Of a stretch of DNA of 64,000 nt, positions 25,376-62,846 are shown in pieces. Source of the stretch: Candidatus Kapaibacterium sp. (GTDB lineage Bacteria > Bacteroidota > Ignavibacteria > Kapaibacteriales > Kapaibacteriaceae); NCBI GenBank assembly GCA_044224925.1, contig JBGAJM010000010.1, positions 914-64,913 on the forward strand, given 5' to 3'. The notes under the pieces are model-generated. The model was not told the origin of the DNA, made no database searches, and saw only the letters and a program-made list of their open reading frames with translations. The position numbers and the translations under genes are program-made. Numbering within the stretch: the first letter of the stretch is position 1; each line of letters begins with the position of its first letter.

Positions 25376-26416
25376 TTGACGACGCCCGACGTCGTCGGTT
25401 CGGGGAACTTTGCCATATTCATCGCCTATACATCTATTCAACGTGAGGTAGAAGTGTCTCGACCGATCTATCGTGCTGCCAAGATCATTGCATTGTTGTC
25501 GACCGGATATCGGTGCACCACCGAAGAGATCCTCCAACACCTTGCCGATGCCGATGCGTCGTTGCGGACACTGTCGCTGCGGACGGTGCAGCGCGACCTG
25601 GCCGATATCATGGAGGCGGGGATCCCCATCGTGACCACACAGCATGGCACGGCGCGACGGTATCATCTTGCCCGTGCCGCCTCGCTGCCTTCCATGTCGG
25701 CCTCCATGCAGAGTCCGCTCCTCGCCATGCACATGCTCAAGGCCGCACTGCCGCAGTTCACGGCGCTGGATGTTGGCGATGCGATCGCAGAGCTGGTGAC
25801 GAGGCTCGATGCGGCCGCACCGGAAGAGGTGATCTCGAACGACCTGGTGGCCAGTATCAACGTGGGTGAGTATCGCGGCGTGCCGATGCTGCGACGGGAA
25901 AGTCTCGATGCCATCATCCGCGCCATCGTCGACAAGCAGTGGCTGCGCGTGACGTATCGTCAGAGCGACAACGTCTTCCAGGCATTCCCGTATCGGATCA
26001 TTCCCTACCTCGGCCGACTCTACCTTGCGGCCTGGAATGCCCGTCACGAGCAGTTCTTCTCGATGGCGCTGGATCGTGTGGTCGACGTGGAAGCGATCTC
26101 CTCCACCGATGTGGCGCCGCCCTTTTCGGTGGATGCCTTCATGGCGAATCGCTTCGGTATGTGGTCGGACCCGCGCGTGCACGATGTGGTGGTGCATGTG
26201 AGCGCCGAGGCCTATGCCGACATTGCCACGCGCATGTGGCATCCCACGCAACAACTCACGGACCTCGGCGACGGTCGCCTCGAGATCCGCATGCGCACGG
26301 GGATCAGTCATGAGCTCGTCTCTTGGGTCCTGCATTGGACGCCGTATATCGAGGTCGTGGAGCCGGAGGTGTTGAGGGACGAGGTGGAGGCGAGGAAGAA
26401 CTTCGTGCGACACTAA
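25376..26416 (+). CDS. WYL-domain transcriptional regulator (HTH + WYL + C-terminal extension)
   Basis: N-terminal HTH-like region (RPIYRAAKIIALLSTGYRCTTEEIL), central WYL-like segment (FQAFPYRIIPYLGRLYLAAWNARHEQFF), C-terminal WCX-like end. The true start may be the GTG near 25452. The last codons lie inside the 12-nt repeat. Confidence 0.65.
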   Translation: MTTPDVVGSGNFAIFIAYTSIQREVEVSRPIYRAAKIIALLSTGYRCTTEEILQHLADADASLRTLSLRTVQRDLADIMEAGIPIVTTQHGTARRYHLARAASLPSMSASMQSPLLAMHMLKAALPQFTALDVGDAIAELVTRLDAAAPEEVISNDLVASINVGEYRGVPMLRRESLDAIIRAIVDKQWLRVTYRQSDNVFQAFPYRIIPYLGRLYLAAWNARHEQFFSMALDRVVDVEAISSTDVAPPFSVDAFMANRFGMWSDPRVHDVVVHVSAEAYADIATRMWHPTQQLTDLGDGRLEIRMRTGISHELVSWVLHWTPYIEVVEPEVLRDEVEARKNFVRH

Positions 26417-26486
26417 GGCGTGCGACACGGAGTGCGACACGGAGTGGGACACTAGCGTGGGACACTTCGTGGGACACTGCGTGCGC
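26405..26486. repeat. tandem 12-nt repeat (GTGCGACACGGA-like, 6 degenerate units) in the convergent intergenic region between the WYL and AbiEii genes
   Basis: gtgcgacactaaggcgtgcgacacggagtgcgacacggagtgggacactagcgtgggacacttcgtgggacactgcgtgcgcc. Confidence 0.8.
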
Positions 26487-26490
26487 CAAG

Positions 26491-27579
26491 CTACCCCTGC
26501 ATCAACGCTTCCACGAGTGCCACTGCCTCTTGTTTAACGGACTTCGGTAGACCTCTGCAGATGGTCTTGATGCGCTCGCTACCAAGCTCTGACTCTTTGA
26601 TGTCTTTGAATACTGTGATCGGCGTATCACCATTGAGAAGACACTGGCCGACGTGGGCGGCACGCAGTGCGGCCATCTTGACCTCTGCAGCGTCAAAACG
26701 ACGCCTGTCGATGATGTAGTTGCTCAGACTTCTGTGGCCACCTGCGTGAGCTTGCTGAAGATCAGGATGATATTCTCGATCCAATTGGCCGAACAACGCC
26801 AACGCCCTATCGGTCAAATCCATGACCACCTCTTCGTTGGTAAAGGTCTGACCAAAGACGTCGCTCTGCACTTCAAGCGTGCGTTCAAACGCAGTGCGAA
26901 CGACACTCCAGTCATTCGCCAGTGAGATCAAAATATTCACATCATACAATTGCTTGATCATTTGTTGGTGCTTCTGTACGGTCCTGTCCGTCCCCGATAA
27001 TGTGCTCGAATGAATTGGTACCCCAACCGTCAATGGTGCACATGCCGTGAGCTTATCTCCAAGCAGTCCCTCAAGCGTAGGAGTGACGATCACAGTCGGT
27101 TCGTCTTCATTGCTGAGCGCCACGTGTTTCAACTCTCGCTTCTCAGTACAAGGGTTTAGAATGCCGGTTCTCACAACGTCCAAAATCACGCTCGAATTGT
27201 TGCCAATTGTATCATCTGGATTCAGGTAGTTGATTCTATAGTGATGCGATCCTTCGGTGCTTCTGCGCCGGATCTGTTGTTCCACGCCCACGAATGGAGT
27301 ACGCTCGGACACAATGCTCTGGATAACATCTTCAACATCCTTTGTCGAGGTGTTCGAGTGCACTTCAATGTCGACATCGATGGAAAGTCTGTCCAGACGA
27401 TCCACGATGAGAGACAGGCATGTCCCACCCTTGAACGTGAATTGAAGTCCATGATTGGCAAGTTGCTCAACCAGGTACAGGGCATGAACCATCGTGTACA
27501 ACAGCTGTTTGTCCCGGATCTTCAATTGTCGCGCTATAGTGTCGCAATGTTCCCTCGTGAGGCACTCCTTACGGATCAT
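26491..27579 (-). CDS. AbiEii/AbiGii-family nucleotidyltransferase toxin (DUF1814)
   Basis: Region LQFTFKGGTCLSLIVDRLDRLSIDVDIEV matches the AbiEii NTase core. Start chosen at internal MIRKECL (27579), overlapping the AbiEi stop. The ORF track extends to 27771. Confidence 0.6.
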   Translation of the reverse strand: MIRKECLTREHCDTIARQLKIRDKQLLYTMVHALYLVEQLANHGLQFTFKGGTCLSLIVDRLDRLSIDVDIEVHSNTSTKDVEDVIQSIVSERTPFVGVEQQIRRRSTEGSHHYRINYLNPDDTIGNNSSVILDVVRTGILNPCTEKRELKHVALSNEDEPTVIVTPTLEGLLGDKLTACAPLTVGVPIHSSTLSGTDRTVQKHQQMIKQLYDVNILISLANDWSVVRTAFERTLEVQSDVFGQTFTNEEVVMDLTDRALALFGQLDREYHPDLQQAHAGGHRSLSNYIIDRRRFDAAEVKMAALRAAHVGQCLLNGDTPITVFKDIKESELGSERIKTICRGLPKSVKQEAVALVEALMQG

Positions 27580-28273
27580 GCAACACCTCCCGTGGTGCAA
27601 CGGCAAGCCACTCAAGGTACGATAGCAACTTGTCGAGGACATTCCTGCGTCGTGCATATGCGCGTAGAACACGTATGTCTGTCGTGTAATCCGTGAATGC
27701 AAGTCTGCACAAATGTTCAAGGTCGGTCGGTGCAATGCCTGCCAGAACCTGTCCGTCAACAAACAGATCAACGATGATCTTCTCGAGCGATGGAGTCCCT
27801 TTTACCTTGTTGATGATCGGCGCCTTCGTGATCAACCTCCGAACCATTACGTCGAAGTTCGAAAACCCAACGTGATTCACTGCCCACTTCGTGTCTGTTT
27901 CAAGGATCACATCTCGAAACCGTTCGGATCGAAGTCGTTCGAACACCATCCCTTGACTATATCGATCGACTTCTACGATCGTAAGACGACGCATGCGCTG
28001 ATGAATGAACAATGGGTTCAAGGCTGTCAAGGACCAGATGCAGTAGTCATCAACGAGGGTTCGGATCACTTGCGCGAGCTCAATCTCCCTGGAAGTTTGA
28101 GGGAGCTCGAACAGGCGTTCAGCGCCGGTTCTGCACCACGTCCGCGAAACGGGCACGAACAGTCCCTTGGTCCGCAATTGGTTCACGCGCCACCGACCCA
28201 CACCGGAACTCGGAGTCGTTCCATAGCGGTCTAGGACCTCAACTCGTTTGATATACGTCGGGATGTTTTCCAT
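27569..28273 (-). CDS. AbiEi-family antitoxin (type IV TA, transcriptional regulator)
   Basis: 234 aa immediately upstream of and overlapping the AbiEii-like gene. Size and position fit AbiEi; the sequence match is weaker than for the toxin. Confidence 0.45.
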   Translation of the reverse strand: MENIPTYIKRVEVLDRYGTTPSSGVGRWRVNQLRTKGLFVPVSRTWCRTGAERLFELPQTSREIELAQVIRTLVDDYCIWSLTALNPLFIHQRMRRLTIVEVDRYSQGMVFERLRSERFRDVILETDTKWAVNHVGFSNFDVMVRRLITKAPIINKVKGTPSLEKIIVDLFVDGQVLAGIAPTDLEHLCRLAFTDYTTDIRVLRAYARRRNVLDKLLSYLEWLAVAPREVLHDP

Positions 28274-28489
28274 GGATGCAGTTCATTCAACTTGTCATTA
28301 CATGTTGAATATACTACAGTTACGTGGAAATTTGCAAAACAAACACGGGACAATTATAGGCATCTAGTGTCCGATGTTAGGACGTGGACGTCGCTCTTTT
28401 CGACGAGAAAGCCGCGTTCGGATTCTCCCGAACTCTCCATGTTCCTAAATTGTCGGTCGGCACTTCTCCCACCATTGGATCAACGAACC

Positions 28490-29149
28490 ATGTCCGTCCG
28501 CATCAACCAGATCGCCCCGAACTTCACGGCTGAGACCACGCAAGGCCCGATCAACTTCCACGATTGGATCGGTGATGGGTATGCTGTGCTGTTCTCACAC
28601 CCGAAGGATTTCACGCCGGTGTGCACCACAGAGTTGGGCACCGTGGCCAAGATGCTACCTGATTTTGCCAAGCGCAATACAAAGGTCATCGGGTTGAGCG
28701 TTGACCCGGTTGCAAAGCATCTTGAATGGGAGAAGGATATTGAAGAGACGCAAGGGGCACCGGTGACGTTTCCGATGATCGCCGATACGGACCTTTCGGT
28801 ATCAAAGCTGTACGACATGCTTCCCGAAGACGAAGGTGATTCGCATGAAGGCCGTACGGCGGTGAACAATCAAACCGTACGCACGGTGTTCATCGTTGGC
28901 CCCGACAAGAAAGTGAAGCTCACCCTTTCCTATCCCATGACGTCAGGCCGAAATTTTGACGAGATCCTTCGCGTCCTCGACTCGATCCAACTCACGGCCA
29001 ACCATAAAGTGGCGACGCCCGCCAATTGGAAGAACGGCGAGGATGTGATCATCGTCACCTCTGTTTCCGATGAAGAAGCCCATGCAAAGTACCCGGACGG
29101 ATTCACGACGGTGAAGCCGTATTTGCGGGTGGTGAAGCAGCCGAAGTAA
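28490..29149 (+). CDS. 1-Cys peroxiredoxin (Prx6-type)
   Basis: MSVRINQIAPNFTAETTQGPINFHDWIGDGYAVLFSHPKDFTPVCTTELG with the peroxidatic Cys in the FTPVCTTE motif. The ORF track starts at 28292 but the true ATG is at 28490, after an AT-rich promoter region. Confidence 0.85.
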   Translation: MSVRINQIAPNFTAETTQGPINFHDWIGDGYAVLFSHPKDFTPVCTTELGTVAKMLPDFAKRNTKVIGLSVDPVAKHLEWEKDIEETQGAPVTFPMIADTDLSVSKLYDMLPEDEGDSHEGRTAVNNQTVRTVFIVGPDKKVKLTLSYPMTSGRNFDEILRVLDSIQLTANHKVATPANWKNGEDVIIVTSVSDEEAHAKYPDGFTTVKPYLRVVKQPK

Positions 29150-29162
29150 GAACGCCTTCGGC

Positions 29163-29333
29163 GTGCGACACGGAGTGCGACACGGAGTGCGACACTTGCG
29201 TGCGACACGGAGTGCGACACGGAGTGCGACACGGAGTGGGACACGGAGTGCGACACGGAGTGCGACACGGAGTGCGACACGGAGTGCGACACTAGAGTGC
29301 GACACGGAGTGTGACACTAGCGTGGGACACCTC
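29163..29333. repeat. intergenic tandem array of about 14 copies of the 12-nt unit GTGCGACACGGA (same unit that encodes S-H-S-V inside the cyclase genes)
   Basis: Head-to-tail repeats gtgcgacacggagtgcgacacgga... with a few variant units (ctagag, ggagtgg). No spacers, so not CRISPR. Confidence 0.9.
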
Positions 29334-29398
29334 TTGGGAAAGACGTTTACGAGGCTTTCGCGTATGTTAACGGGAACGCTGAACGGTGCACAGAGCCT

Positions 29399-30103
29399 AT
29401 GGATATCATCAAACGATCAGTAGCCAACAATGCGGCGTGGGTGGACATGGTGATGACGTCGCTGGGAATGCCGGGGGAGTTCACGCCGGTTCTCTGGCAG
29501 AATCTCCATGACATGCCGCCGATCTTCCCGAATGCCGATACACTGGACGGCACGGAGACGGAACAGCTTCAGGCGATTGCAGCTCTTGCACAACGTCGCA
29601 AGAACAAGGCCGTAGCCATCAAGGATGCATGGGCACGATTGGACCTGCACGCATTGGGATTTACGCCACTGTTTGAGGCGCAGTGGCTCGCTCGAAATGC
29701 AGACCCTATGCCCATGCCCATGATCTCAGACATCTCTATCGAGCGCATCAATACCATTGATGCTCTGCGCGAGTTCGCCGTGGCCTGCAATGGCGAGGAT
29801 CTGGCCTATGTCTATTCCGCGGACCTCCTGCGACCTGAGATCGCCTGGATAGCAGCACGAGTAGACGGGAACATTGTCGGTGGTGTAACAGCGGTCAACG
29901 CCATTGGGGTGAACGGCATCAATAATCTCTTTGCATCAGATGGAGCAACGGAACGAGCCCTGATTCAGGCTGCCGTGAACGCCTTCCCAGCCTTGCCTGC
30001 TTGTGGCTATGAGCGCATCGAGGCGACCGCACCTTACTTGGAGGTAGGATTCTCAGTCATGGGCAACCTCAGGGTGTGGGTCAAGCCACCGTCTACTGTC
30101 TGA
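29399..30103 (+). CDS. hypothetical protein (234 aa), possibly acyltransferase-like
   Basis: ORF of coding composition; no motif confidently recognised. Confidence 0.4.
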   Translation: MDIIKRSVANNAAWVDMVMTSLGMPGEFTPVLWQNLHDMPPIFPNADTLDGTETEQLQAIAALAQRRKNKAVAIKDAWARLDLHALGFTPLFEAQWLARNADPMPMPMISDISIERINTIDALREFAVACNGEDLAYVYSADLLRPEIAWIAARVDGNIVGGVTAVNAIGVNGINNLFASDGATERALIQAAVNAFPALPACGYERIEATAPYLEVGFSVMGNLRVWVKPPSTV

Positions 30104-30214
30104 TCATCGTTCGCCCATGCGCTACCGTCAACCCGGATCCGTATCAGCACGACAAGCGCCTGCCTGTCCAACGCTCAGCCACACAGACTCTCGGCATCGA
30201 CTCTTCAAATGCGT

Positions 30215-32044
30215 TCATGGAACGCTTTGCAACCAATAGGTCTTCATCATGCCCTTGCCCTTTATGTCGAACGAACCCCTTCGTTGAGTTACAAGTGACA
30301 AGTGATGAGTGACAAGTGGCACTTCGTTGGATTCTGGATTCTCAGATTCCGTGATTGGATTCTGTATTGTGTATTCTGTATTCGCCTTCAATTGAATGGC
30401 AAAGGCTTCGGAAACATGCACCTTGCCCGGCTCCCCGCTCGACTCCATACGTGAAGCAACGTTCACCGTGTCTCCCCAGACGTCGTATTGAAGCCGCTGC
30501 GTGCCGATGACGCCGGCTGTGGCAGGACCGATGTGGATGCCGACGCGAGACTGTAGTGGCGTGCCATCATGCCATGTGAAGGCATGCTGCATGACATCGA
30601 GTGCAACGTGGGCAATGGACTGTGCATTCGTTGTTGCATCGGCATCGCCGCGGAAGCACATGTAGGAGTCACCGATGGTCTTGACCTTGACCACGTTGTG
30701 CGTGTCGCAGAATGCATCGATTGTACGGAAGATATTCTCGAGCATCTTCACCACATCGGAAGGCGGCATGGAGGATGTATGCGAAGTGAAACTCACGATG
30801 TCGAGGAACATCACGGCGGCATATTCGAAGTGGTCGCCGCTGACGTCTTCGCCGCGGATCATGCGGTCGGCAACGGACTTCGGTAGAGCGCCATACAAAA
30901 GAGCACGCTCCTTGTCTCGCTCGCGCCGTTCCCCTTCCATCCTTCGCTCTGCCTCCATGATTGCCATGCGTTGCGTTGTCTCTTTGCCGCGGATCTCTTC
31001 CGTCAGTCGAAGATACTCTGCATTGTGTTCGATGAATCCGGCAAAGTCGTTGCGCTTCTGAGCAAGATCACGAAGAAGATGCCGAACCTCCGCAGAATAC
31101 GCACGCAGGCCGGCATGCATTGTGATCGCCAGTGCTTCCTGAAGATGTTGGTGCGCCGCATCGAGATCACCACGATGTTCGGCAAGGGAGGCACTATTGG
31201 TCTCACGCTGCGTTCGTACTGCAGGATCGTCCATCGGCATGGTGCCTTGAAGCGCCAACAGTTCTTCGGCTACATCGTACCGATCGAGCTTCGCGAGCGT
31301 GGCGATCACATTGCCGATAGCACGAACGATAGCGGCACGGTCACCCTGTTGCTCAAGCATTGCAAGCGAGTGACGGTAGTGGTCCAACGCCGACAGATCG
31401 TCGCCAGTGAACTTGTATAAACTGCCGATGCTGCTTGTGACGTTTGCTACACCGGCATGGTCGCCCAATTCTTCAAACAGTACCTGCGCGAGACGGTAAT
31501 ACTCCAACGCGGTATCATAGTCGCCGGTACTTGTATACACACTGCCGATGCGTTGCGTATTGCGGGCCACACTGTCGCGTTTCCCCAGCTCTTCAAACAC
31601 CGTCTGCGCGCGGAGATAGTGTTCCATCGCCGATGCGTAGTCACCTGTGTTATTGAAGACGATACCAATGTTTCCCGTGACGAGGGCCACACCGACGCGG
31701 TTGCCCAGCTCTTCATGCAGTGACCGCGCACGACCGTAGGACTCCAGCGCAGATGCGAAGTCGCCGATCTTCAAGTAGGCATTGCCGATGCTGGTGGAAA
31801 CACTTGCAACACCGGTACGGTCACCACGCTCATCATGAAACGCCAACACCAGACGGTAATGCTGCAATGCCGACGGGAAGTCTCCGGCGAGTCCCTCGGC
31901 GATACCCAAGGCATAGTGCGCATGAACCTCAGCCTCTGGCGTGCCAAGCGATCGCATCTCCAGCGCCAGCGCCCGAAGCGCCGGAGCATCACTTCGGTTC
32001 TTTGCATGATCGAAGTCTTCTCTCATCTCTTCGAGCGTTCTCAT
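30215..32044 (-). CDS. TPR-repeat + class III adenylyl cyclase domain protein (paralog P1, subfamily B)
   Basis: About 10 TPR-like 40-aa units (IGNAYLKIGDFASALESYGRARSLHEELGNR...). Coiled-coil linker, then cyclase motifs FLDIVSFT, VKTIGDSYMC, YDVWGDTVNVASRMES and a C-terminal FDIKGKGMMKTYWL. Its stop overlaps the P2 start (ATGA). Confidence 0.8.
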   Translation of the reverse strand: MRTLEEMREDFDHAKNRSDAPALRALALEMRSLGTPEAEVHAHYALGIAEGLAGDFPSALQHYRLVLAFHDERGDRTGVASVSTSIGNAYLKIGDFASALESYGRARSLHEELGNRVGVALVTGNIGIVFNNTGDYASAMEHYLRAQTVFEELGKRDSVARNTQRIGSVYTSTGDYDTALEYYRLAQVLFEELGDHAGVANVTSSIGSLYKFTGDDLSALDHYRHSLAMLEQQGDRAAIVRAIGNVIATLAKLDRYDVAEELLALQGTMPMDDPAVRTQRETNSASLAEHRGDLDAAHQHLQEALAITMHAGLRAYSAEVRHLLRDLAQKRNDFAGFIEHNAEYLRLTEEIRGKETTQRMAIMEAERRMEGERRERDKERALLYGALPKSVADRMIRGEDVSGDHFEYAAVMFLDIVSFTSHTSSMPPSDVVKMLENIFRTIDAFCDTHNVVKVKTIGDSYMCFRGDADATTNAQSIAHVALDVMQHAFTWHDGTPLQSRVGIHIGPATAGVIGTQRLQYDVWGDTVNVASRMESSGEPGKVHVSEAFAIQLKANTEYTIQNPITESENPESNEVPLVTHHLSLVTQRRGSFDIKGKGMMKTYWLQSVP

Positions 32045-34218
32045 GAGGCGTGCTCCAGCCAGTAGGTGTTCATTGCACCCTTTCCTTTGATGTCAATCGA
32101 GCCCCTGAGTTGAGTTACAAGTGACGAAGACACTTCGTGCGACACGGAGTGCGACACGTTGTGCGACACGTTGTGCGACACTTCGTGGAGAATTGGATTC
32201 TTGATTGTTGATTGTTGATTCTTCTCCAATTCAATAGCAAATGCTTCGGTCACCTGCACCCGTCCGGCCTCACCGCTGCTCTCCATTCGTGAGGCCACGT
32301 TGACCGTGTCTCCCCACACATCATACTGCATGCGTTCTTTGCCGATCACTCCTGCCGTCACTGGTCCACAGTGCAATCCAATTCGGAATGCCATTTCGTG
32401 GGATACGTTGATGCGCGACATCTCCAACGCACAGAGCGCGGCGTTCACAACACTATCAAACGCTACGGCCATGTAGCTATCCCCGATCGTCTTGATCTTG
32501 GTGACGCCATGCTTGGTGCAGATCGCATCGCATTGTGTGAACACGTTGTCGAGTAGCTCGATCACATCGTGTGATGACATCGACGATGAGATCTCTGTGA
32601 ATCCGACGATGTCGAGGAAGATGACGGCTGCATTGTCGTAGTGGTCGTTCACCACCTCGCCCCTCGCCACCCTATCCGCCACTTCCTTGGGCAGGGTGGA
32701 ATGGAGCACGGCGAGATGCTTCTGGTGCTCGCGATCCTTTGCATCGATCTCGCGTTGCTTGGCTTGCATGGCGAGCTTGGTTGCAGCCTCATTACCGTTG
32801 ATCTCTTCATGTACACGCATGTATGCGTTGTTGTGTTCGACATAGCCCACAAGGTCGTTTCGTTTGAAGGCAAGGTCGCGCAGTTGCTGATGTACGGCTG
32901 CAACGCTTGGACGGAGTCCGTGCTCTTCGGCTATGCGCAATGCATGCATGAGTGTTGCCTGAGCCTGCTCCACATTGCCGGTGCGATCCTGCACCTTCGC
33001 ACGGCAGATCTCTCGCAAGAGTATCTTTGGCGGTCCATCGAGTTCGAGCGTGTCCAACACGCTCAGTGTTTCGGTTGCCGCATCGAGATCACCCATTGCG
33101 AGATGGAGACCCACCAATGCGCACCGTACGCGCGCAATATTGTAACGTTCGCCAAGCTCTTCCCATTCCGTGAGCGCTTGCTCGTAGTGTTCCTTCGCCA
33201 ATGCATGGTTGCCCTGCTGATCGTACACTTCGCCCAGACCGTGCAAGGCACCCGCCAAATGTGAACGCTCACCCAATTGCGCATACATCGTGCGGGCGCG
33301 TTGGTACTGCGCAATGGCAGCAGATCCTTGTCCCGTACGATGGTGGAGGAGGCCGATTCGAAGCAACGTATACGCAATGCCCTTCTGATTGTCGATCTCT
33401 TCGAAGATATCGAGGGCACGCTCGAAATGTTCGAGTGCGGTCGGGTTATCGCCTGTATCGAAATGCAGAACTCCAATGTTCGTCGTCACGAGTGCTACGT
33501 CATACAACTCATTCAGGTCTGCATGTACAGACATTGATCGATGATAGTGTTCAAGAGCTGCAGCCGTGTCGCCGATCGCTGCGTAGACATTGCCGATGTT
33601 CGCAAGACCACGTGCAATGCTCCCTTGGCCACCTTCATCGCCATACATGTCCAACGAGCGTTGAAAGTACTCAAGTGCCGTTCTGTAGTCTCCACGATTG
33701 TAGTAGACGATGCCCATGTTTCCGGTGATCCGCGCAGCAGAAATGCTCCGTCCCTGTTTGACGCTGAGATCGAGTGCCCGCCGGTAGTACGTCATTGCCG
33801 CATCGTAGTCGTTGAGTTCCAGCAGCACATTCCCGAGGTTCCCGCTGGTGCGCGCCACACTATTGAGATCATTCGCCTCTTCGCCTATAGCGAGCGCTCT
33901 CGAATGGTGGTCAAGTGCCGCCGCGTGGTTCCCTGTTCGATGAAGAGCACTCCCGATATTGTCCAACGCGATCGCCATCCCTGTACGATCACCAAGTGTA
34001 TCATAGAGTGCCAGTGCGGCCCGCAGATGTTCGATCGCTTCATGGTACTTATCATGCGAGAGAACGGCCCACCCACGAGCGCGATGCGCCAACGCTTCTG
34101 CGTTCGGTGATTCCAACGCATCGAGCTCCGTTGCAAGGTCGAGCAGCGCTGCTGCATCGTTGTTCCGTGTAGCCGCAAGGACGTCTGCGTCGATATCGTC
34201 AAACGAGCGTTGTGTCAT
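32041..34218 (-). CDS. TPR-repeat + class III adenylyl cyclase protein (paralog P2, subfamily A) with (SHxV)n insert
   Basis: Start moved to MTQRSFDDIDADV (34218). Cyclase motifs FLDIVGFT, IKTIGDSYMAV, YDVWGDTVNVASRMES. Insert HEVSHNVSHNVSHSVSHEVSSS before the final beta-strand. Confidence 0.8.
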   Translation of the reverse strand: MTQRSFDDIDADVLAATRNNDAAALLDLATELDALESPNAEALAHRARGWAVLSHDKYHEAIEHLRAALALYDTLGDRTGMAIALDNIGSALHRTGNHAAALDHHSRALAIGEEANDLNSVARTSGNLGNVLLELNDYDAAMTYYRRALDLSVKQGRSISAARITGNMGIVYYNRGDYRTALEYFQRSLDMYGDEGGQGSIARGLANIGNVYAAIGDTAAALEHYHRSMSVHADLNELYDVALVTTNIGVLHFDTGDNPTALEHFERALDIFEEIDNQKGIAYTLLRIGLLHHRTGQGSAAIAQYQRARTMYAQLGERSHLAGALHGLGEVYDQQGNHALAKEHYEQALTEWEELGERYNIARVRCALVGLHLAMGDLDAATETLSVLDTLELDGPPKILLREICRAKVQDRTGNVEQAQATLMHALRIAEEHGLRPSVAAVHQQLRDLAFKRNDLVGYVEHNNAYMRVHEEINGNEAATKLAMQAKQREIDAKDREHQKHLAVLHSTLPKEVADRVARGEVVNDHYDNAAVIFLDIVGFTEISSSMSSHDVIELLDNVFTQCDAICTKHGVTKIKTIGDSYMAVAFDSVVNAALCALEMSRINVSHEMAFRIGLHCGPVTAGVIGKERMQYDVWGDTVNVASRMESSGEAGRVQVTEAFAIELEKNQQSTIKNPILHEVSHNVSHNVSHSVSHEVSSSLVTQLRGSIDIKGKGAMNTYWLEHAS

Positions 34219-34326
34219 GGAGGAAAGGAGAATGAGAAGTAAGAAAGAAGGAAAAGAGAAGGAAAAAAGAAGGAAAAAAGAAGTACAAAAGAAGTACAAA
34301 AGAAGTGGCACTTCGTGGGACACATG
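34219..34326. repeat. CT-rich (coding-strand) tandem repeats (TTCCTTCTCTTT / TTGTACTTCTTT units) filling the 108-bp gap between the P3 stop and the P2 start
   Basis: Plus strand reads ggaggaaaggagaatgagaagtaagaaagaaggaaaagagaaggaaaaaagaaggaaaaaagaagtacaaaagaagtacaaaagaagtggcac. Homologous to the tract after P6 (44396..44470). Confidence 0.85.
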
Positions 34327-36285
34327 TCACTCTCTTGATTCCAACCAGTAGGTGTTCATCAGACCCTTGCCCTTGATATCGAACGATCCACGCTCGATAG
34401 TGACAAGTGACGAAGACACAGAGTGCGACACCGAGTGCGACACCGAGTGCGATTGTGGATTCTCCGATTCAGTGATTGGATTCTGTATTATGAATTCTGT
34501 ATTCCTCTTCAATTCCGAGGCAAACGCTTCGGATATATGAACCCGCCCGGCCTCGCCCGCCGACTCCATCCGTGAGGCAACGTTGACGGTGTCGCCCCAC
34601 ACATCGTATTGCAACCGCTGCGTGCCGATGACACCGGCTGTTGCGGGACCGAAGTGGATGCCGACTCGGAACAGCAGTGGATCTCCGTTGGGCCATGTGA
34701 ATGCGTGTTGCATGACATCGAGGGCAACGTGGGCAATGGACAACGCATTTGTCGTCGCATCTGCATCGCCGCGGAAGCACATGTAGGAGTCACCGATGGT
34801 CTTGACCTTGACAACGTCCTGCTTGTCACAGAATGCATCGATCGTACGGAAGATGTTCTCCAACATCTTCACCACGTCGGAAGGCGGCATGGAGGAAGTG
34901 TGCGATGTGAAGCCCACAACATCAAGGAACATCACGGCAGCATGATCGAAATGATCGCCGGTCACATCTTCGCCGCGGATCATACGGTCGGCGACAGACT
35001 TCGGAAGCGCTCCATACAGCAACGCGCGCTCCTTGTCTCGCTCCCGCCTTTCACCTTCCATCCTTCGCTCCGCCTCCATCATCGCTAGTCTTTGCGTGGC
35101 CTCTTTGCCGCGGATCTCTTCGGTGATGCGCTGATACTCGTTGTTGTGCTCAATGTAACCGGCGAAGTCATTACGTTTCTGGGCGAGGTCGCGAAGCATT
35201 TTGTGGCACTCTGCGGAATACCCACGTAGGCCGGCCTCGACCGTGATCGCTAGTGCATCAGTTAGGTGTTGATGCGCCGCATCAAGATCCTCCCAGTGTT
35301 CGGCAAAGTTGGCGCTGTTGGCGTGATATTGACACCGAACAACCGGATCATCCATCTGCATGGTGGCCTGACGCTCCAACAGTTCTGCGGCTTCGTCATA
35401 CCGAATGAGGCCCATGAGTGCCGTGACCACATTGCCGGTGGCGCCGGCCATACCGGCGCGGTCGCCTAGTTCTTCGTGCATCGCTAGCGCGCGGCCGTAA
35501 TGCTCCAGCGCTGCCGTATGGTCGCCTCTTGCACGGAATAGATTTCCAATGTTCGAGGTAATGCTGGCCACGCCAGCTCTGTCGCCAACCCCGTCAAGGA
35601 TCGCCATCGCTCGACGGAAGTACTCAAGTGCGGCCGTGCTGTCGTCGGTGCCGTTGTACACGTTCCCAATACCGTTGGTACTGTGGGCCACGCCCACAGG
35701 GTCACCAAGCAATTCATACAATGCCAATGCGCGGCGGTGGTATTCCAGTGCCGCGGGGTAGTCGTCGGTACTGAAGTACACATTGCCAATGCCATTGGTG
35801 ACGCGGGCCACGCCCGCATCGTCGCCAAGCGATAGATGCAATTCCAATGCGCGGCGATACTGTTCCAATGCCGCCGGATAGTCGCCCGTGTTTGTAAGTA
35901 GATTACCGATATTCCCAGTGATAACGGCCACCCCAGCGAGGTCGCCCAACTCTGTGGGCACCTCCAACGCGCGGCGGTAGTGCTCGAGTGCTCTGGCAAA
36001 ATCGCCGATCTTGCGGTACACATTGCCTATGTTGACAGCGATGCGTGCTATCCCTTGACTGTCACCCAGCGCTTCACGCAATGCCATCGCACTGCGGTAA
36101 TGCTCCAATGCTGCAGGGTACTCGCCCCTGATCACTTCGGCAACACCAAGGGTAGTGTGTGCATGCGCCTCTGCGCTCTGTGTACCAAGCGCTTGCATTT
36201 CATGAGCCAGAGCACGTAGCGACTCAGCGTCATGTTTCGTCATTGCATGATCGACATCTTCCTTGATCTCTTCGAGCGTTCTCAC
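34327..36285 (-). CDS. TPR-repeat + class III adenylyl cyclase protein (paralog P3, subfamily B)
   Basis: Starts MRTLEEIKEDVDHAM (compare P1 MRTLEEMRED). Cyclase motifs FLDVVGFT, VKTIGDSYMC, YDVWGDTVNVASRMES. Insert ...ENPQSHSVSHSVSHSVSSSLVT. Confidence 0.8.
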   Translation of the reverse strand: MRTLEEIKEDVDHAMTKHDAESLRALAHEMQALGTQSAEAHAHTTLGVAEVIRGEYPAALEHYRSAMALREALGDSQGIARIAVNIGNVYRKIGDFARALEHYRRALEVPTELGDLAGVAVITGNIGNLLTNTGDYPAALEQYRRALELHLSLGDDAGVARVTNGIGNVYFSTDDYPAALEYHRRALALYELLGDPVGVAHSTNGIGNVYNGTDDSTAALEYFRRAMAILDGVGDRAGVASITSNIGNLFRARGDHTAALEHYGRALAMHEELGDRAGMAGATGNVVTALMGLIRYDEAAELLERQATMQMDDPVVRCQYHANSANFAEHWEDLDAAHQHLTDALAITVEAGLRGYSAECHKMLRDLAQKRNDFAGYIEHNNEYQRITEEIRGKEATQRLAMMEAERRMEGERRERDKERALLYGALPKSVADRMIRGEDVTGDHFDHAAVMFLDVVGFTSHTSSMPPSDVVKMLENIFRTIDAFCDKQDVVKVKTIGDSYMCFRGDADATTNALSIAHVALDVMQHAFTWPNGDPLLFRVGIHFGPATAGVIGTQRLQYDVWGDTVNVASRMESAGEAGRVHISEAFASELKRNTEFIIQNPITESENPQSHSVSHSVSHSVSSSLVTIERGSFDIKGKGLMNTYWLESRE

Positions 36286-38567
36286 GATGCACCCTCCAAC
36301 CAGTACGTGTTCAATGCACCCTTGCCTTTGATGTCAATCGAGCCACGCTCGATAGTGACGAGTGACGAAGACACTGCGTGCGACACTTCATGCGACACGG
36401 AGTGCGACACGGAGTGCGACACCGAGTGCGACACGGAGTGCGACACGGAGTGCGATTCTGGATTGGGAGATTCCGAGATTGAATTCTGTATTGTGTATTC
36501 TGTATTCGCCTTCAATTGAATGGCAAACGCTTCGGACACCTGCACCCGTCCGGCCTCACCGCTGCTCTCCATTCGTGAGGCAACATTGACGGTGTCTCCC
36601 CACACATCATACTGCATGCGTTCTTTGCCGATAACGCCAGCAGTTACAGGGCCACAGTGCATTCCGATGCGGAAGAGCACTTCGTGCGACACGGGGATAA
36701 CGCCTTCGGCGTGCGACACCGAGTGCGACACGGAGTGCGACACTTCGTGGGAAAGACGAATACGCGACATATCCATGGCGCAGAGTGCAGCGTTGATCAC
36801 GTTGTCAAACGCCACGGCCATGTAGCTATCCCCGATCGTTTTGATCTTGGTGACGCCATACTTGGCACAGATCGCATCGCATTGTGTGAACACATCGTCG
36901 AGCAACTCGATCACATCTTGCGATGACATTGTTGAGGAGATCTCTGTGAAGCCGACGATGTCGAGGAAGATGACGGTTGCATTGTCATAGTGATCATTCA
37001 CCACCTCGCCCCTTGCCACCCTATCGGCCACTTCCTTGGGTAGGGTGGAATGAAGCACGGCCAGGTGTTTTGCGAGCTCGCGTTCACGGGCATCGATCTC
37101 GCGCTGCTTGGCCTGCATGGCGAGCTTGGTGGCCGTTTCCTTGCCGTTGACCTCTTCGGTGATGCGCGTGTATTCGTTGTTGTGCTCGACGTAGCGGGCA
37201 AGATCATTTTGCTCCAGCGCAAGATCGCGGAGGTGCTTGTGTGTCGACGCAATGTAGGGACGCAGTCCATGCTCTTGAGCGATGGCCAACGCGCGCAGGA
37301 GCGAATCGCGGGACTGCTCTGCGTCACCGGCGCGCACCTGCAATTGCGCACGATACACCTCACGCAAGATGTGCTGGTGCGGACTGTCGCTCTGAATTTC
37401 GTCGACGATCCCTAGCAGATCCATGGCATCGCCGTCTTTCTCCGCGGATAGATACATTCCGATCAGAGCATACCGAATGCGTTGAACATTTCCACGTTCG
37501 CCAAGCTCTTCTACGATCGTCAGTGCTCGCTGATACTGCTCAATGGCCGCGAGTTGGTCGCCGTTCCTCGCATACACCTCACCAATTCCGTAGATGGCTT
37601 CGGCCACATGAGAGGGTTCACCCAACTGTTCATACAAGGTACCAGCCCGCTGGTAGTGTTCAAGAGCCGCGGTGGTATCGCCGATGCGGTTGTGCAAGCC
37701 GCCGATACGTTCCAGCACATACGCGATCCCTCTGCGGCTGTCGATCTCTTCATAGATGGTGAGCGCCTGTTGCAAGTAGTCGAGTGCCGATGGATAGTCG
37801 CCGGTTTCGCGGTACACACCACCGATGTTCGCCATCACATGGGCAATACTGTGCGGTTCACCGACCTCCTGATGGATCGACAGTGATCGACGGTACTGCT
37901 CCAACCCCGCTGGATAGTCACCCATCATAAGGTAGGCGTTGCCGATGTTGCCCAAGGTACGAGCGACCGCGCCTCGATCGCCGTGTTCGGCATGCATACT
38001 CAGAGAGCGTTGAAAGTGCTCCAGGGCTGTACGATAGTCACCGAGATTGTAGTAGATGATGCCGATGCTTCCGGTGACAAGTGCGACGGAATTGAGTTCC
38101 CCGAGCTCGCTATTGAGAGCGAGGGCTCGTTGGTAGTTCGTCATGGCCGCGTCGTAGTCGTTGCATTCCAGCATCACGGCAGCAAGATTCCCTGACGCAC
38201 GAGCCACACCACGACGGTCGGCCGTTTCTTCACTTATGGTGAGGGCCCTTCGATGGAAGTTCAACGCTTCAGAATAATCGCCGGTTCGGCAGAGAGCACT
38301 GCCGATATTGTCCAAGGTGACCGCCTGGCCTGCACGGTCGCCAAGCGCTTCATACAGTGCCAACGCAGCACGACCATGCTCCAGCGCTTTGGCATAGTTG
38401 TCGCGCAACAGCATGGCCCATCCGCGTATGCGGTGGGCGAGGGCCTGCGCTTCCGGTGTTGCGACCGTATCGAGCTCGGTGGCAAGGGTCAGCAAGGCGG
38501 CGGCGTCGTTGATCCGCATCGCCGCCTGAACGGCCTCGCGGATCTCGTCAAAGGGGCGGGGTGACAT
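36282..38567 (-). CDS. TPR-repeat + class III adenylyl cyclase protein (paralog P4, subfamily A) with two (SHSV)n inserts
   Basis: Insert 1 is LSHEVSHSVSHSVSHAEGVIPVSHEV, before FRIGMHCGP. Insert 2 is NPESHSVSHSVSHSVSHSVSHSVSHEVSHAVSSS, before LVTIERGSIDIKGKG. Its stop overlaps the P3 start. Confidence 0.8.
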   Translation of the reverse strand: MSPRPFDEIREAVQAAMRINDAAALLTLATELDTVATPEAQALAHRIRGWAMLLRDNYAKALEHGRAALALYEALGDRAGQAVTLDNIGSALCRTGDYSEALNFHRRALTISEETADRRGVARASGNLAAVMLECNDYDAAMTNYQRALALNSELGELNSVALVTGSIGIIYYNLGDYRTALEHFQRSLSMHAEHGDRGAVARTLGNIGNAYLMMGDYPAGLEQYRRSLSIHQEVGEPHSIAHVMANIGGVYRETGDYPSALDYLQQALTIYEEIDSRRGIAYVLERIGGLHNRIGDTTAALEHYQRAGTLYEQLGEPSHVAEAIYGIGEVYARNGDQLAAIEQYQRALTIVEELGERGNVQRIRYALIGMYLSAEKDGDAMDLLGIVDEIQSDSPHQHILREVYRAQLQVRAGDAEQSRDSLLRALAIAQEHGLRPYIASTHKHLRDLALEQNDLARYVEHNNEYTRITEEVNGKETATKLAMQAKQREIDARERELAKHLAVLHSTLPKEVADRVARGEVVNDHYDNATVIFLDIVGFTEISSTMSSQDVIELLDDVFTQCDAICAKYGVTKIKTIGDSYMAVAFDNVINAALCAMDMSRIRLSHEVSHSVSHSVSHAEGVIPVSHEVLFRIGMHCGPVTAGVIGKERMQYDVWGDTVNVASRMESSGEAGRVQVSEAFAIQLKANTEYTIQNSISESPNPESHSVSHSVSHSVSHSVSHSVSHEVSHAVSSSLVTIERGSIDIKGKGALNTYWLEGAS

Positions 38568-38655
38568 GGAGGGAAGTTACGAATCAGAGTGACGAGTGAC
38601 GAGTGACAAGTGACACTTCGTGGGTCCTATATTGTTGATCCTTGATCCTTGATCT

Positions 38656-39936
38656 TTGATTCATCTTCCATCCTCCCCCATGATCCTCCGCTCCTTCCTC
38701 CTCCTGCTTGTCGGCGTGGTCGTGCTTGTCGGACGAGCACAGGGTCAGCATTGCACGAACGACCAGCGCTATACCGACGTGGTGACCTTCGATACCGCCC
38801 AGATCACGATCGGCGCGAATGTTCAATACGGCACGGCCAACGATGTGCAAGGGAGTCCGGTGCCGTTGCTCATGGACCTGTACTATCCGAACCTTGCCGT
38901 CGACCCAGTGGCGGCACGACCGATGATCGTGCTCTTTCATGGAGGCGGGTTCTCGTCGGGTGACAAACAGTCGGGCGACATCCGCGACCTCTGCGTGCAT
39001 CTGGCCATGCGCGGCTTTGTGTGTGCATCCGTGAACTATCGGCTCGGACATGACTTCTCGGAGTACGGACAGTACAAGGCGCGGTATCGCGCGATCCAGG
39101 ATGGCCATGCCGCCCTTCGATTCATTGTGCGCAATGCCGCCACCGTCCGCATCGACACGAACTGGCTGTTCGTTGGCGGACAAAGTGCCGGCTCGTTGCT
39201 GGCGCTGGGCATGGTGTATGCGGATCAGAGCGAGCTCGACAGTATATCGCTGCTCTATGGCACGACGGCTGTGAGCGCGGAGTTGGGAGGCTTGCATACG
39301 TCCGGCAATGCACTGACGAATTCGTATTCCATCAAGGGCATCTTCAACAACTGGGGCGGTGTTGTTGCGAGCGAAGTGGATGCGGACGAAATGATCCCCA
39401 CCATTGCCTTTCACGGTGGCCTCGATCCGTTGGTCCCGATCGATGTCGATACGTCGTTCGCACACTGCGCACTGCTTGGCTCGCGAGCGATCCATGCCGA
39501 TCTGATCGCCAACGGCGTGTGCAGCGAGTTGAACGTAGAGGTATCGGGTGGACACGGCATCTATCGCGATGCTGCAAGCGTGTTCAGAGCACAACATGCG
39601 AGCTGCTTCTTCCGCTCGATCTTCTGTGATCGTTGCTCGAGTTTCTCCACCACCGATTCGATCCCTTCATCGTGCTCGTCCCCTGTCCACGTCGACGAGC
39701 AACCGCGCACCACCTCATTCCACATCGACCCCAATCCTTTCGAAAGCATCATGACCATTGGAGGGTTGGAGGGTGGCGCGGAACTCACGGTCTACAACTG
39801 CTTCGGACAAGTGGTCCGCACAGCTCACGTCGGCAATGGCCCCCTTCACCTTGATGTATCGCCGGGTTTGTACATTCTGCACGTACAACCCACGGGAAAC
39901 AGCAGTAGATTCACGAAGGTGGTGGTGAGGCGATGA
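38656..39936 (+). CDS. alpha/beta-hydrolase esterase/lipase with T9SS C-terminal sorting domain
   Basis: Signal peptide; VLFHGGGFSSGD oxyanion motif; nucleophile elbow GGQSAGS; C-terminal Por domain IDPNPFESIMTIGG...LYILHVQPTGNSSRFTKVVVRR. Confidence 0.75.
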   Translation: MIHLPSSPMILRSFLLLLVGVVVLVGRAQGQHCTNDQRYTDVVTFDTAQITIGANVQYGTANDVQGSPVPLLMDLYYPNLAVDPVAARPMIVLFHGGGFSSGDKQSGDIRDLCVHLAMRGFVCASVNYRLGHDFSEYGQYKARYRAIQDGHAALRFIVRNAATVRIDTNWLFVGGQSAGSLLALGMVYADQSELDSISLLYGTTAVSAELGGLHTSGNALTNSYSIKGIFNNWGGVVASEVDADEMIPTIAFHGGLDPLVPIDVDTSFAHCALLGSRAIHADLIANGVCSELNVEVSGGHGIYRDAASVFRAQHASCFFRSIFCDRCSSFSTTDSIPSSCSSPVHVDEQPRTTSFHIDPNPFESIMTIGGLEGGAELTVYNCFGQVVRTAHVGNGPLHLDVSPGLYILHVQPTGNSSRFTKVVVRR

Positions 39937-40190
39937 AGAAGAGGAATACAGAATACACAATACAGAATTCAATCAAAGAATCAAGGAATCAAGAATCACA
40001 CGAAGTGTCGCACAGCGTGTCGCACAGCGTGTCGCACGCCGAAGGCGTTTTCTTCGTGTCGCACTCCGTGTCGCACGAAGTGCCACTTGTCACTCGTCAC
40101 TCGTCACTTGTCACTGTCGAACGAGGATCGTTCGACATCAAAGGCAAAGGCCCCATGCGCACGTATTGGTTGGAAAGGAGCGATCGATGA
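39933..40190 (+). pseudogene. stand-alone 85-aa ORF that is a chimeric C-terminal remnant of a TPR-cyclase gene
   Basis: MKKRNTEYTIQNSIKESRNQESHEVSHSVSHSVSHAEGVFFVSHSVSHEVPLVTRHSSLVTVERGSFDIKGKGPMRTYWLERSDR joins insert-2-type, insert-1-type and terminal beta-strand sequences. Its TGA stop overlaps the P5 ATG exactly as between intact pairs. Confidence 0.6.
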
Positions 40191-44395: not shown

Positions 44396-44500
44396 CCACT
44401 TCTCTTGTACTTCTTTCTTCCTTCTCTTTTCCTTCTCTTTTCCTTCTCTTTTCCTTCTCTTTTCCTTCTCGTGACTCGTCACTCGTCACTTGTCACTTCC
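44396..44500. repeat. CT-rich 12-nt tandem repeat (TTCCTTCTCTTT x5) followed by 9-mer units (GTGACTCGTCACTCGTCACTTGTCAC), downstream of P6
   Basis: cttctcttgtacttctttcttccttctcttttccttctcttttccttctcttttccttctcttttccttctcgtgactcgtcactcgtcacttgtcac. Homologous to the P3/P2 intergenic tract. Confidence 0.85.
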
Positions 44501-45734: not shown

Positions 45735-45754
45735 GATTCTGCAATCTACGAAAT

Positions 45755-45873
45755 AGTAGCGGCTACTTGCCAACTTATAGTGCGGCTACTTGCCAACTTT
45801 TAGTGCGGCTACTTGTCAACTTTTAGTGCGGCTACTTGCCATCTTTTAGTGCGGCTACTTGCCACTCGTCACT
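45755..45873. repeat. 5 tandem copies of a ~24-bp unit (TAGTGCGGCTACTTGCCAACTTTT), ending in 9-mer units
   Basis: tagtagcggctacttgccaacttatagtgcggctacttgccaacttttagtgcggctacttgccaacttttagtgcggctacttgccatcttttagtgcggctacttgccactcgtcactcgtaactc. The first unit contains the perfect hairpin AGTAGC-G-GCTACT. Lies between the Fic stop and the AAA ATPase start. Confidence 0.85.
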
Positions 45874-45879
45874 CGTAAC

Positions 45880-47076: not shown

Positions 47077-47110
47077 TTTTCTTTAATAGAGAATTCCGCT
47101 ATTAAAGTGG
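47043..47110. promoter_or_regulatory. AT-rich operator-like cluster: a perfect 16-bp palindrome plus three TATTAAAG half-sites in alternating orientation, in the divergent Fic / hypothetical-gene control region
   Basis: ACGAAAGATCTTTCGT at 47043..47058 is perfectly palindromic. It is followed by TTATTAAAGT, CTTTAATAG and CTATTAAAGT; the last two form a 9-bp inverted repeat with a 9-bp spacer. This is the AT-richest spot in a GC-rich region. Confidence 0.5.
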
Positions 47111-48579: not shown

Positions 48580-48648
48580 TCTTCGATTCTGTATTATGTA
48601 TTCTTGATCCTGTATTCTTGATTCTGTATTGATCTTCCCATTCCCCTG

Positions 48649-62788: not shown

Positions 62789-62846
62789 AACTCGTCACTC
62801 GTCACTCGTCACTTGTAACTTGTCACTCGTCACTCGTAACTCTCTT
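62789..62846. repeat. short array of the 9-mer CTCGTCACT / CTTGTAACT in the convergent intergenic region
   Basis: aactcgtcactcgtcactcgtcacttgtaacttgtcactcgtcactcgtaactc. Confidence 0.85.

Follow-up and report, generated by a model that had tools for sequence, protein, structure and literature searches.

In a stretch of 64,000 nucleotides (nt) from an uncultured Kapabacteria/Ignavibacteria-like bacterium (Candidatus Kapaibacterium sp., contig JBGAJM010000010.1; hereafter the window, in which coordinates count from the first letter), a short unit consisting of the core GTG[C/G]GACAC and a spacer of 3-4 nt is repeated in tandem, both outside genes and in frame within genes for predicted cyclases. 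The array at 29163-29333 also shows a T variant of the core, GTG[C/G/T]GACAC. With at most one mismatch, GTGCGACACGGA is matched 46 times in the window; the expectation is 0.63 matches, and none of 100 dinucleotide-preserving shuffles gave more than 3. All six frames of the canonical 12-mer are open. In this bacterium, which belongs to the Bacteroidota-Chlorobi group, short tandem repeats form several families with units of 7, 11, 12 and 23 nt, the 12-mer among them. Outside the cyclase genes, the 12-mer and a 13-mer that accompanies it are found at the following places:

26405-26483, + strand: non-genic array of six units, filling the spacer between the WYL-WCX gene and the convergent AbiEii gene
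29152-29164, + strand: 13-mer ACGCCTTCGGCGT with a 5-bp hairpin, forming the left flank of the 29163 array
29163-29333, + strand: non-genic array of 14 units, with 11 spacings of 12 nt and 3 spacings of 13 nt
40005-40076, unit on the - strand: third non-genic copy, with five units, inside an orphan 3' cyclase fragment

The 29163 array begins 13 nt past the stop codon of a peroxiredoxin gene (28490-29149), and 66 nt separate its end from the next gene (29399). Tandem Repeats Finder (TRF) places it at 29159-29317 (period 12, 13.1 copies, 90% matches, score 258), and its three 13-nt units are those with TAG or TTGC spacers. An earlier note, made from the letters of the window, had counted 14 copies after the peroxiredoxin gene, and the array does contain 14 head-to-tail units. 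The six copies that the note had placed after the WYL gene are also present, although they do not strictly lie after it: the first unit codes for the last residues (..NFVRH) and the stop codon of the WYL-WCX regulator gene (25376-26416). Adjoining this regulator gene are an AbiEii toxin gene and a DUF6577 gene, a type IV toxin-antitoxin-like pair (26491-28273, - strand). Clustered regularly interspaced short palindromic repeat (CRISPR) arrays have repeats of ~24-48 nt and unique spacers of similar length. A CRISPR array is ruled out here by the core of 9 nt and by spacers of 3-4 nt that recur from a handful of variants.

The genic arrays lie in a family of eight genes, several of them linked by 4-nt ATGA or GTGA overlaps, whose products combine TPR_12 repeats, a coiled coil and a class III cyclase domain (PF00211, E = 1e-45 to 1e-52):

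30215-32044, - strand: g1, 609 amino acids, no array, heptamer modules present
32041-34218, - strand: g2
34327-36285, - strand: g3
36282-38567, - strand: g4
40187-42259, + strand: g5
42256-44376, + strand: g6
52346-54439, - strand: g7
54436-56556, - strand: g8

The best matches of the cyclase domain in the PDB are the mammalian AC8, AC9 and AC5 and the mycobacterial Cya. In an alignment with 37 relatives, the catalytic residues D84, D128, K122/K124, D202, R213 and K307 are invariant and N209 is more than 90% conserved. The eight genes are thus predicted to encode class III adenylyl/guanylyl cyclases. On the coding strand the unit is NNN-GTG-TC[G/C]-CAC, which gives x-V-S-H, and the runs read (S-H-x-V)n. 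They occupy two sites. Site 1 is situated between the helix 'ALCALEMSR' and the strand 'FRIGxHxGP' and holds 4-5 units in g4, g5, g6 and g7, while site 2 is situated between the 'SEAFA..LK' helix and the last beta-hairpin, 'RGSIDIKGKG.M.TYWL', whose KGKG strand, right after the site, is invariant across the cyclase family. The runs and remnants are:

30320-30331: g1, single degenerate unit TCCAACGAAGTG
32131-32178, + strand: g2 site-2 run SHNVSHNVSHSVSHEV, four units
34417-34452, + strand: g3 site-2 run, three units
36372-36455, + strand: g4 site-2 run, seven units
36684-36752, + strand: g4 site-1 run, 3.5 units, then AEGVIP (the 13-mer hairpin), then one unit
41756-41830, - strand: g5 site-1 run with an AEGVLP hairpin segment
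42053-42172, - strand: g5 site-2 run, ten units
43945-43992, - strand: g6 site-1 run, four units
44215-44286, - strand: g6 site-2 run, six units
52466-52573, + strand: g7 site-2 run, nine units plus two degenerate units (counted as ten, or as 11 with a degenerate SNKV)
52796-52855, + strand: g7 site-1 run, five units
54538-54597, + strand: g8 site-2 run, five units

In-frame (S-H-S-V)n runs in the TPR-cyclase genes had been claimed before, and runs of the more general form (S-H-x-V)n are found in seven of the eight genes with TPR_12 and Guanylate_cyc domains. The claim that at least seven genes carry runs at two positions holds for the number of genes with at least one run and fails for the number of positions, as both sites are occupied only in g4, g5, g6 and g7. 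Runs of up to 13 units were not recovered, the genic runs having 3-10 units (11 in g7 with the degenerate SNKV). At site 1, g2 retains a one-unit remnant only, and g8 has a heptamer-coded QYTIQNTESNP (54837-54860) in place of the 12-mer. This insert is kept in the closest public genome, SZAS-90 (L006 4173-6368), and a second repeat family has therefore colonized the same loop.

Genic and non-genic arrays differ in how they keep to the reading frame. None of the 105 genic unit spacings deviates from a multiple of three, all being 12, 24 or 27 nt, whereas 20 of the 85 non-genic spacings do, mostly through 13-nt units with TAGC, TAGA or TTGC (Fisher p = 2.6e-8); the TAG-type spacers TAGC and TAGA occur only outside genes. 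The expectation that a unit divisible by 3 would let protein length change without frameshifts is borne out by these counts (105/105 versus 65/85 multiples of 3). A contingency (phase-variable) locus, which acts by frame or promoter switching, was considered and rejected, since a 12-nt unit cannot frameshift a gene on or off. The runs are also homogeneous at the DNA level. Inside them His is CAC in 57 of 58 cases and Val is GTG in 57 of 58, compared with 51% and 49%, respectively, elsewhere in these genes. Where paralogues agree in a residue of the strongly conserved flanks, they share its codon only in ~50% of cases, and the paralogues are therefore old, which together with homogeneous runs fits recent expansion or concerted evolution of the latter.

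The two kinds of arrays have the spacers GGA, TTC and TGC and both core variants in common, and they also share a flank. Exact copies of ACGCCTTCGGCGT occur in the window only at 29152, 36700, 40036 (- strand) and 41796 (- strand), and every one adjoins 12-mer units. Those inside genic arrays, at site 1 of g4 and g5, code for A-E-G-V, a further copy is in the orphan fragment, and the 13-mer recurs beside arrays of SZAS-90 (L019 6919 and L023 531). Based on the ACGCCTTCGGCGT flank and the common spacers, shared descent of genic and non-genic arrays is supported at the level of sequence.

The 12-mer does not stand alone at site 2. The whole site-2 insert is assembled from short tandem repeats in the order GAATACA x3.5 (coding for NTEYTIQN), an AATC-type 7-8-mer (PITESENPES), the 12-mer run and CACTCGT heptamers ((S)SLVT). 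GAATACA/AATCTCTG-type heptamer/octamer modules precede every site-2 12-mer run, as follows:

42001-42047, + strand: GAATACA x3.6 and AATCTCTG x2.5 modules, coding for NTEYxIQN-PISES.NP
30328-30383, 32196-32220, 36483-36507, 39944-39998, 44163-44187, 52601-52624 and 54625-54648: equivalents of the 42001-42047 modules
40084-40115, + strand: CACTCGT heptamer module after the 12-mer run, coding for (S)SLVT
30287-30318, 36354-36368 and 54504-54536: equivalents of the CACTCGT module

The heptamer modules have a fixed copy number in all paralogues, and NTEYTIQN is invariant. Outside genes, too, the window has arrays of these heptamers, of 11-mers and of a 23-mer (for example 56640-56766, 62790-62842, 34235-34306, 44399-44497 and 45754-45881), those at 56640-56766 (x18.7) and 62790-62842 being CACTCGT heptamer arrays. 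Divergent promoter regions contain long arrays of CACTCGT/GAGTGAC (up to 18.7 copies) and of TTGATCC (56640-56766, 62790-62842 and 38587-38660), for instance between g8 and a beta-lactamase-family gene, where a change in copy number could alter promoter spacing. An 11-mer family (AGAAGTAAAAA / CTTCTCTTTTC, ~6.5 copies) is present in the g3-g2 spacer (34235-34306) and after g6 (44399-44470), and the same 11-mer trails a 12-mer array on another SZAS-90 contig (L023 ~575-650). The 23-mer array (x4.8, 45754-45864) lies between a Fic/DOC gene and an AAA_14/DUF4143 ATPase gene, and a 14/28-mer array (48572-48630) overlaps the stop codon of the gene at 47107-48579.

The genome scan for the repeat covered one genome per species. 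The closest public genome, the metagenome-assembled genome (MAG) 'Bacteroidetes bacterium SZAS-90' (JAFDZT01), carries the repeat on contigs 1, 3, 4 and 7. Synteny with the window is seen on its contig 3, where nucleotide identity is 80-92%, and this contig adds at least 10 cyclase paralogues whose runs range from 0 to 12 units at site 1 and from 0 to 11 units at site 2. A third genome, JGI Ga0590115_0002611 (locus L062), shares the heptamers and has the repeat at cyclase site 1 as a GTGGGACAC-TTC variant. With the three-unit pattern, the metagenome scan returned 35 loci. Of these, L037 is a member of the family, as L043 probably is; the remaining 33-34, pure 12-mers that differ in GC content and use one fixed spacer throughout, were rejected as unrelated. 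The three matches of the viral scan share these traits and none is of the family, and most genome matches outside SZAS-90 look equally unrelated and were set aside. The cyclase homologues carry protein annotations from Kapabacteria, Ignavibacteriae or Chlorobi MAGs. Given these annotations and the few true relatives in the genome, metagenome and viral scans, the repeat is therefore private to a narrow lineage.

Within this lineage, the number of units differs between orthologous sites:

array after the peroxiredoxin gene: 14 units in the window, 5 in SZAS-90
g5 site 1: 4 units in the window, 12 in SZAS-90
g5 site 2: 10 units in the window, 9 in SZAS-90
g7 site 2: 10 units in the window, 9 in SZAS-90

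The g5 orthologue of SZAS-90 is 82% identical in amino acid sequence upstream of the catalytic motif. The cyclase paralogues of the window carry 0-10 units and all loci together 0-14, and spacer sequence, like unit number, is not conserved between orthologous non-genic loci. Identical copy numbers in all isolates and no additional copies elsewhere in the genome had been named as what would argue against active instability; we find differences as large as 14 versus 5 and 4 versus 12 units, and further copies on the four SZAS-90 contigs. By exact look-up, the peroxiredoxin gene of the window and its downstream gene were found only in the Logan assembly of SRR28480386, where the short-read contigs L025 and L026 end inside the 29163 array on both sides, with partial units at both ends. 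With short-read contigs ending there, the copy number at 29163 depends on the assembly method. The 234-amino-acid gene that follows the peroxiredoxin array in the window is replaced by a KilA-N gene in SZAS-90, and gene content therefore changes at this array.

Exchange between paralogues has also left its marks. Compared with g7, its SZAS-90 orthologue (L012 3034-6162) is 85% identical over the TPR region and 86% over the coiled coil, while identity falls to 50% and 47% over the site-1 segment, where the best match is g3 (68%) and where there is no run. A segment was exchanged between paralogue subfamilies after the window and SZAS-90 genomes split, adding or removing the site-1 run. Gene order has changed as well. 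In the window an esterase gene is followed by an orphan 3' module, g5 and g6, the g5 cassette being flanked by two 3' modules, whereas in SZAS-90 the orphan module is directly before g6 and the g5 orthologue is found elsewhere on the contig, with the breakpoints within the shared 3' modules. The orphan itself is as follows:

39933-40190, + strand: orphan 3' cyclase fragment, an 85-codon mini open reading frame (ORF) with MKKR, the complete site-2 mosaic and the last beta-hairpin (..ERGSFDIKGKGPMRTYWLERSDR, then the stop)

Its ATG overlaps the stop codon of an esterase gene with a type IX secretion system (T9SS) tail, and its own stop codon overlaps the ATG of g5, both as ATGA. In three genomes an orphan 3' module is found ahead of the first cyclase gene, the counterpart in SZAS-90 being frame-broken by a 13-nt unit and that in L062 degenerate. 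The orphan resembles what would be left of a cyclase gene after deletion of its body as far as the heptamer array. For a divergent paralogue in SZAS-90 (L006 2221-4380), nucleotide identity is 0.63-0.68 before 'WGDTVN' and 0.79-0.88 beyond it, which is suggestive only of gene conversion of the 3' module, because that segment is also the most conserved functionally. The occurrence of the repeat on four SZAS-90 contigs, the presence of ACGCCTTCGGCGT beside both kinds of arrays and the mosaic orthologues support the suggestion of the earlier note that the intergenic copies reflect spread or recombination.

The AlphaFold2 model of the coiled-coil and catalytic region of g5 has a mean predicted local distance difference test (pLDDT) score of 84.5, with 228 of its 320 residues at 90 or above and the core above 90. 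In the same model, the pLDDT score is 49-70 for the site-1 insert and 41-51 for the site-2 insert, and neither has secondary structure. Class III cyclases in the PDB align on both sides of the inserts. With low-pLDDT inserts in an otherwise well-modelled fold, the prediction for both sites is a disordered surface loop. Sister lineages have other low-complexity peptides at these places, namely (ALNE)n, (SPEG/SPDG)n, (LPES/LRET)n, PRYPISD repeats or the heptamer-coded SSEQRAAS, and TRF detects 12-nt and 7-nt DNA tandem repeats at the corresponding places in L064; other relatives, among them P0002, P0020 and P0027, have short loops and no repeat. The loops thus appear to show tolerance rather than a specific peptide. 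The related lineages L064 (ENA ERZ25039527 contig_31904) and L062 have tandem TPR-cyclase batteries whose loops are built from other units (CGAGCAG, GTTCCCT and 12-mers coding for SPEG), and a third insertion site is located after 'DSYMAVAF'.

Outside the cyclase genes, the arrays show a preference in position. Nine of the 11 independent non-genic loci start 0-14 nt past, or overlap, a stop codon or a tRNA 3' end, and in these nine GTGCGACAC is on the sense strand, while two loci are antisense (L019 6080 and L011). The nine sense loci follow the genes for the WYL regulator, peroxiredoxin, PAP2, an FGE-sulfatase, tRNA-Arg, an NmrA-like protein, a TPM-domain protein and two ORFs without a Pfam match. 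The sense-strand trend is not significant (two-sided p = 0.065), and most window arrays are genic. At the NmrA-like gene locus the array is followed by a good intrinsic terminator, and in L037 the array is placed between the stop codon and a good intrinsic terminator. A scan of 26000-30200 for promoters and terminators found no terminator after either array, the 13-mer hairpin registering weakly on the opposite strand, and the Rfam scan of the whole window gave no family match. RNA folding of the array (29140-29345) yields z = -2.4 and a centroid that is almost unpaired; a structured RNA is not supported, because the fold signal is weak and the centroid nearly unpaired. A CsrA-type sponge with GGA loops was tried and rejected, as the GGA spacer is not conserved and the L020 array has TTC and TAGC throughout. 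In the orientation not used by the cyclases, arrays are translated as C-terminal tails (L002 3080-3652, L023 2-526 and window 25376-26416): the PAP2 protein ends in HFVRHRVRHGVRHEVRHGVGH, i.e., a C-terminal (VRHx)5, two other proteins end in ..FVRH, and translation halts at the first TAG or TAA spacer.

From these observations we favor, with somewhat better than even confidence, the explanation that the 12-mer is a lineage-specific dispersed minisatellite, changed by slippage and recombination, copied between loci and filtered for frame. At the DNA level, slipped-strand mispairing together with unequal recombination would lengthen and shorten the arrays, and copies would reach other loci through homologous recombination or gene conversion. 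Non-coding arrays, which mostly fill the stretch right after a stop codon or a tRNA 3' end, would be free to gain 13-nt units that contain TAG. The cyclase paralogues would read the opposite strand as (S-H-x-V)n in two disordered surface loops, where selection would purge only variants that break the frame or contain stops, leaving loops of polymorphic length instead of a conserved peptide. Together with its flanking heptamers, the 12-mer would form a mosaic 3' module common to all paralogues, on which recombination would act to swap segments and to add, remove or relocate cassettes. The sequences and the model show the anatomy, the frame constraint, the DNA homogeneity, the copy-number differences between paralogues and between two genomes, the position in loops and the mosaic orthologues, whereas we infer slippage, neutrality or tolerance of the peptide, and instability in the present day. 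Several results nevertheless weigh against this explanation. Two protein searches for near-identical cyclase variants returned nothing closer than 71-78% identity, which leaves present-day hypermutability putative. The spacer GTT (Asn) accounts for 19 of the 105 genic spacers and for 0 of the 85 non-genic ones, and the two pools are therefore not freely exchanging. The position after stop codons and the strand trend are not predicted by pure slippage. Finally, all genic arrays have one orientation and one frame (S-H-x-V) at the two sites in spite of the six open frames, which fits descent or copying between sites and fits selection for the peptide as well.

The last point leads to the reading in which the (S-H-x-V)n runs are selected His-rich loops with a putative metal-binding (Ni/Zn/Cu) or regulatory role, their copy number tuning affinity; metal binding was the idea of the earlier note. 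Such loops would hold His residues at i/i+4 spacing, up to 10-12 in one loop; their variable spacer codon gives only S, N, E, A, P and T, with no bulky or basic residue; and site 2 comes directly before the invariant KGKG strand. The His pattern itself is not conserved, however, as the runs are missing in g1, its orthologue and many relatives, and site 1 of g8 holds another repeat. A further point against metal binding is that in sister lineages these loops are filled by unrelated peptides such as (ALNE)n and (SPEG)n, and that some paralogues lack any such insert. Uniform codons indicate young DNA repeats, not old conserved peptides, the same DNA unit is found outside genes, and the loops are predicted to be disordered, so that we consider selection for His-rich loops unlikely. 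The nine loci 0-14 nt after a stop codon or tRNA end with GTGCGACAC as sense, the array of L037 ahead of its terminator, and the same position bias together with transcription reported for GGGNATC heptamers in Xanthomonas and Nostoc (PMC4692102) would suit transcribed elements of the 3' untranslated region (UTR) that bind protein, stabilize mRNA or act as trans-antisense or sponge RNAs through their complementarity to the runs in cyclase mRNAs. We regard this as rather improbable, given that the strand bias is a trend only, that unit number and spacers are not conserved at orthologous loci (14 versus 5), that the predicted RNA structure is weak, and that the window's two arrays have no Rfam match and no terminator after them. 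A highly speculative extension, to which we give a slim chance, is a trans-acting RNA network in which 3' UTR (GUGCGACACNNN)n of up to ~170 nt pairs with (NNNGUGUCGCAC)n in the mRNAs of more than 20 cyclase paralogues, the candidate carriers being the transcripts of peroxiredoxin, PAP2, the FGE-type enzyme and the NmrA-like gene and the tRNA-Arg trailer. If it existed, the network transcripts would titrate cyclase mRNAs or trigger their cleavage, or the reverse, with repeat number setting the strength, and would couple cyclic-nucleotide signaling to stress and housekeeping expression.

A footprint of an active mobile element, of the repetitive extragenic palindrome/bacterial interspersed mosaic element (REP/BIME) type or the miniature inverted-repeat transposable element (MITE) type, with a dedicated enzyme that targets gene 3' ends, would account for dispersed copies with a common hairpin 13-mer at some array ends and for the preference for positions right after stop codons. 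REP/BIME elements are imperfect palindromes of ~20-40 nt that form a stable hairpin, and they are associated with a RAYT (IS200/IS605-like) transposase. The unit here has an inverted repeat of only 3 bp (GTG/CAC), and the 13-mer with its 5-bp hairpin is present at only ~3 of the 11 non-genic loci; a REP/BIME-type element was rejected for its lack of a stable palindrome, given this 3-bp inverted repeat and the weak array fold. Since, moreover, no terminal inverted repeats or target-site duplications were seen, array modules vary in order and orientation, and no transposase-like gene was seen adjoining arrays in the window and the loci examined, a mobile element is very unlikely. Assembly or sequencing artefacts, for which the break of the Logan contigs exactly at the 29163 array could be cited, have a negligible probability: the same family is present in the independent assemblies SZAS-90, JGI Ga0590115 and Ga0154020, partial units stand at both Logan contig ends, and the genic arrays keep long ORFs open. 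The artefact reading is effectively refuted, and only the exact copy number of the longest arrays depends on the assembly.

The dispersed minisatellite that we favor has counterparts among known bacterial repeats. Arranged head to tail above chance expectation at many loci, restricted to a lineage and varying in copy number by locus and by genome, the 12-mer family has the defining features of dispersed bacterial simple-sequence repeat families; it differs from dispersed heptamer families in its 12-nt unit, in the co-occurring families with which it forms mosaics and in its in-frame position in a catalytic domain. The GGGNATC repeats of Xanthomonas and Nostoc are transcribed and vary in number; most are on the sense strand and either span a stop codon or lie no more than 50 bp from one (Rehm et al., 2015; PMC4692102). 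Like these and the cyanobacterial short tandemly repeated repetitive (STRR)-type sequences, the 12-mer has short head-to-tail units at many loci, has a copy number that varies by locus and is lineage-restricted, and here too heptamer families co-occur with it. It may likewise be over-represented in non-coding DNA, although most of its arrays in the window are genic. Its unit of 12 nt is, however, not G-rich and has no G-quadruplex potential, and throughout a family of paralogues it is fixed in frame inside the catalytic domain. TAACTGA repeats are known from Beggiatoaceae, cyanobacteria and some Bacteroidetes as dispersed arrays. In one orientation they overlap stop codons, in the other they are translated as low-complexity peptides in a few ORFs, and their author, too, infers that only peripheral or tolerated insertions survive (MacGregor, 2015; PMC4679880). 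Unlike the 12-mer, TAACTGA repeats are mostly located just upstream of start codons, have stops in all frames in the forward orientation, and within ORFs occur at protein termini instead of in internal loops of an enzyme domain.

Variable in-frame coding repeats are represented by the heptanucleotide repeats of E. coli K1 neuO and by the size-variable Vlp lipoproteins of Mycoplasma. As in these systems, repeat number alters protein length while the fold is kept, and the homogeneity of the unit DNA points to slippage. The phase variability of neuO is mentioned elsewhere (PMC13001214). The neuO and Vlp systems are, however, single surface or virulence loci with documented within-strain switching, whereas the repeats described here are in cytoplasmic signaling enzymes, extend over more than 20 paralogues across two genomes and are also found in non-coding DNA. 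Contingency loci with phase-variable simple-sequence repeats are known in Haemophilus, Neisseria and Campylobacter (PMC2651432) and likewise have slippage-prone repeats in or beside genes, but the heptamer modules of the cyclases, which would be able to shift the frame, have a fixed copy number in all paralogues.

For work on this group, a practical consequence is that the arrays fragment short-read assemblies, so that gene calls in its MAGs are truncated or fused, and many cyclase gene calls of the lineage in databases are probably truncated by such repeats. For the biology of the family, one repeat is found in three states: between genes as filler, at the C-termini of proteins as tails (..FVRH and (VRHx)5) and within an enzyme domain as loops. 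It is a clear, though by no means the first, example of how non-coding simple-repeat DNA can turn into the loops of an enzyme and drive the turnover of paralogues. The repeats bear on that turnover through segment swaps, cassette relocation and orphan fragments. With other repeats filling the same loops in sister lineages, the TPR-cyclase family is a natural experiment on the positions at which the class III cyclase fold tolerates arbitrary insertions.

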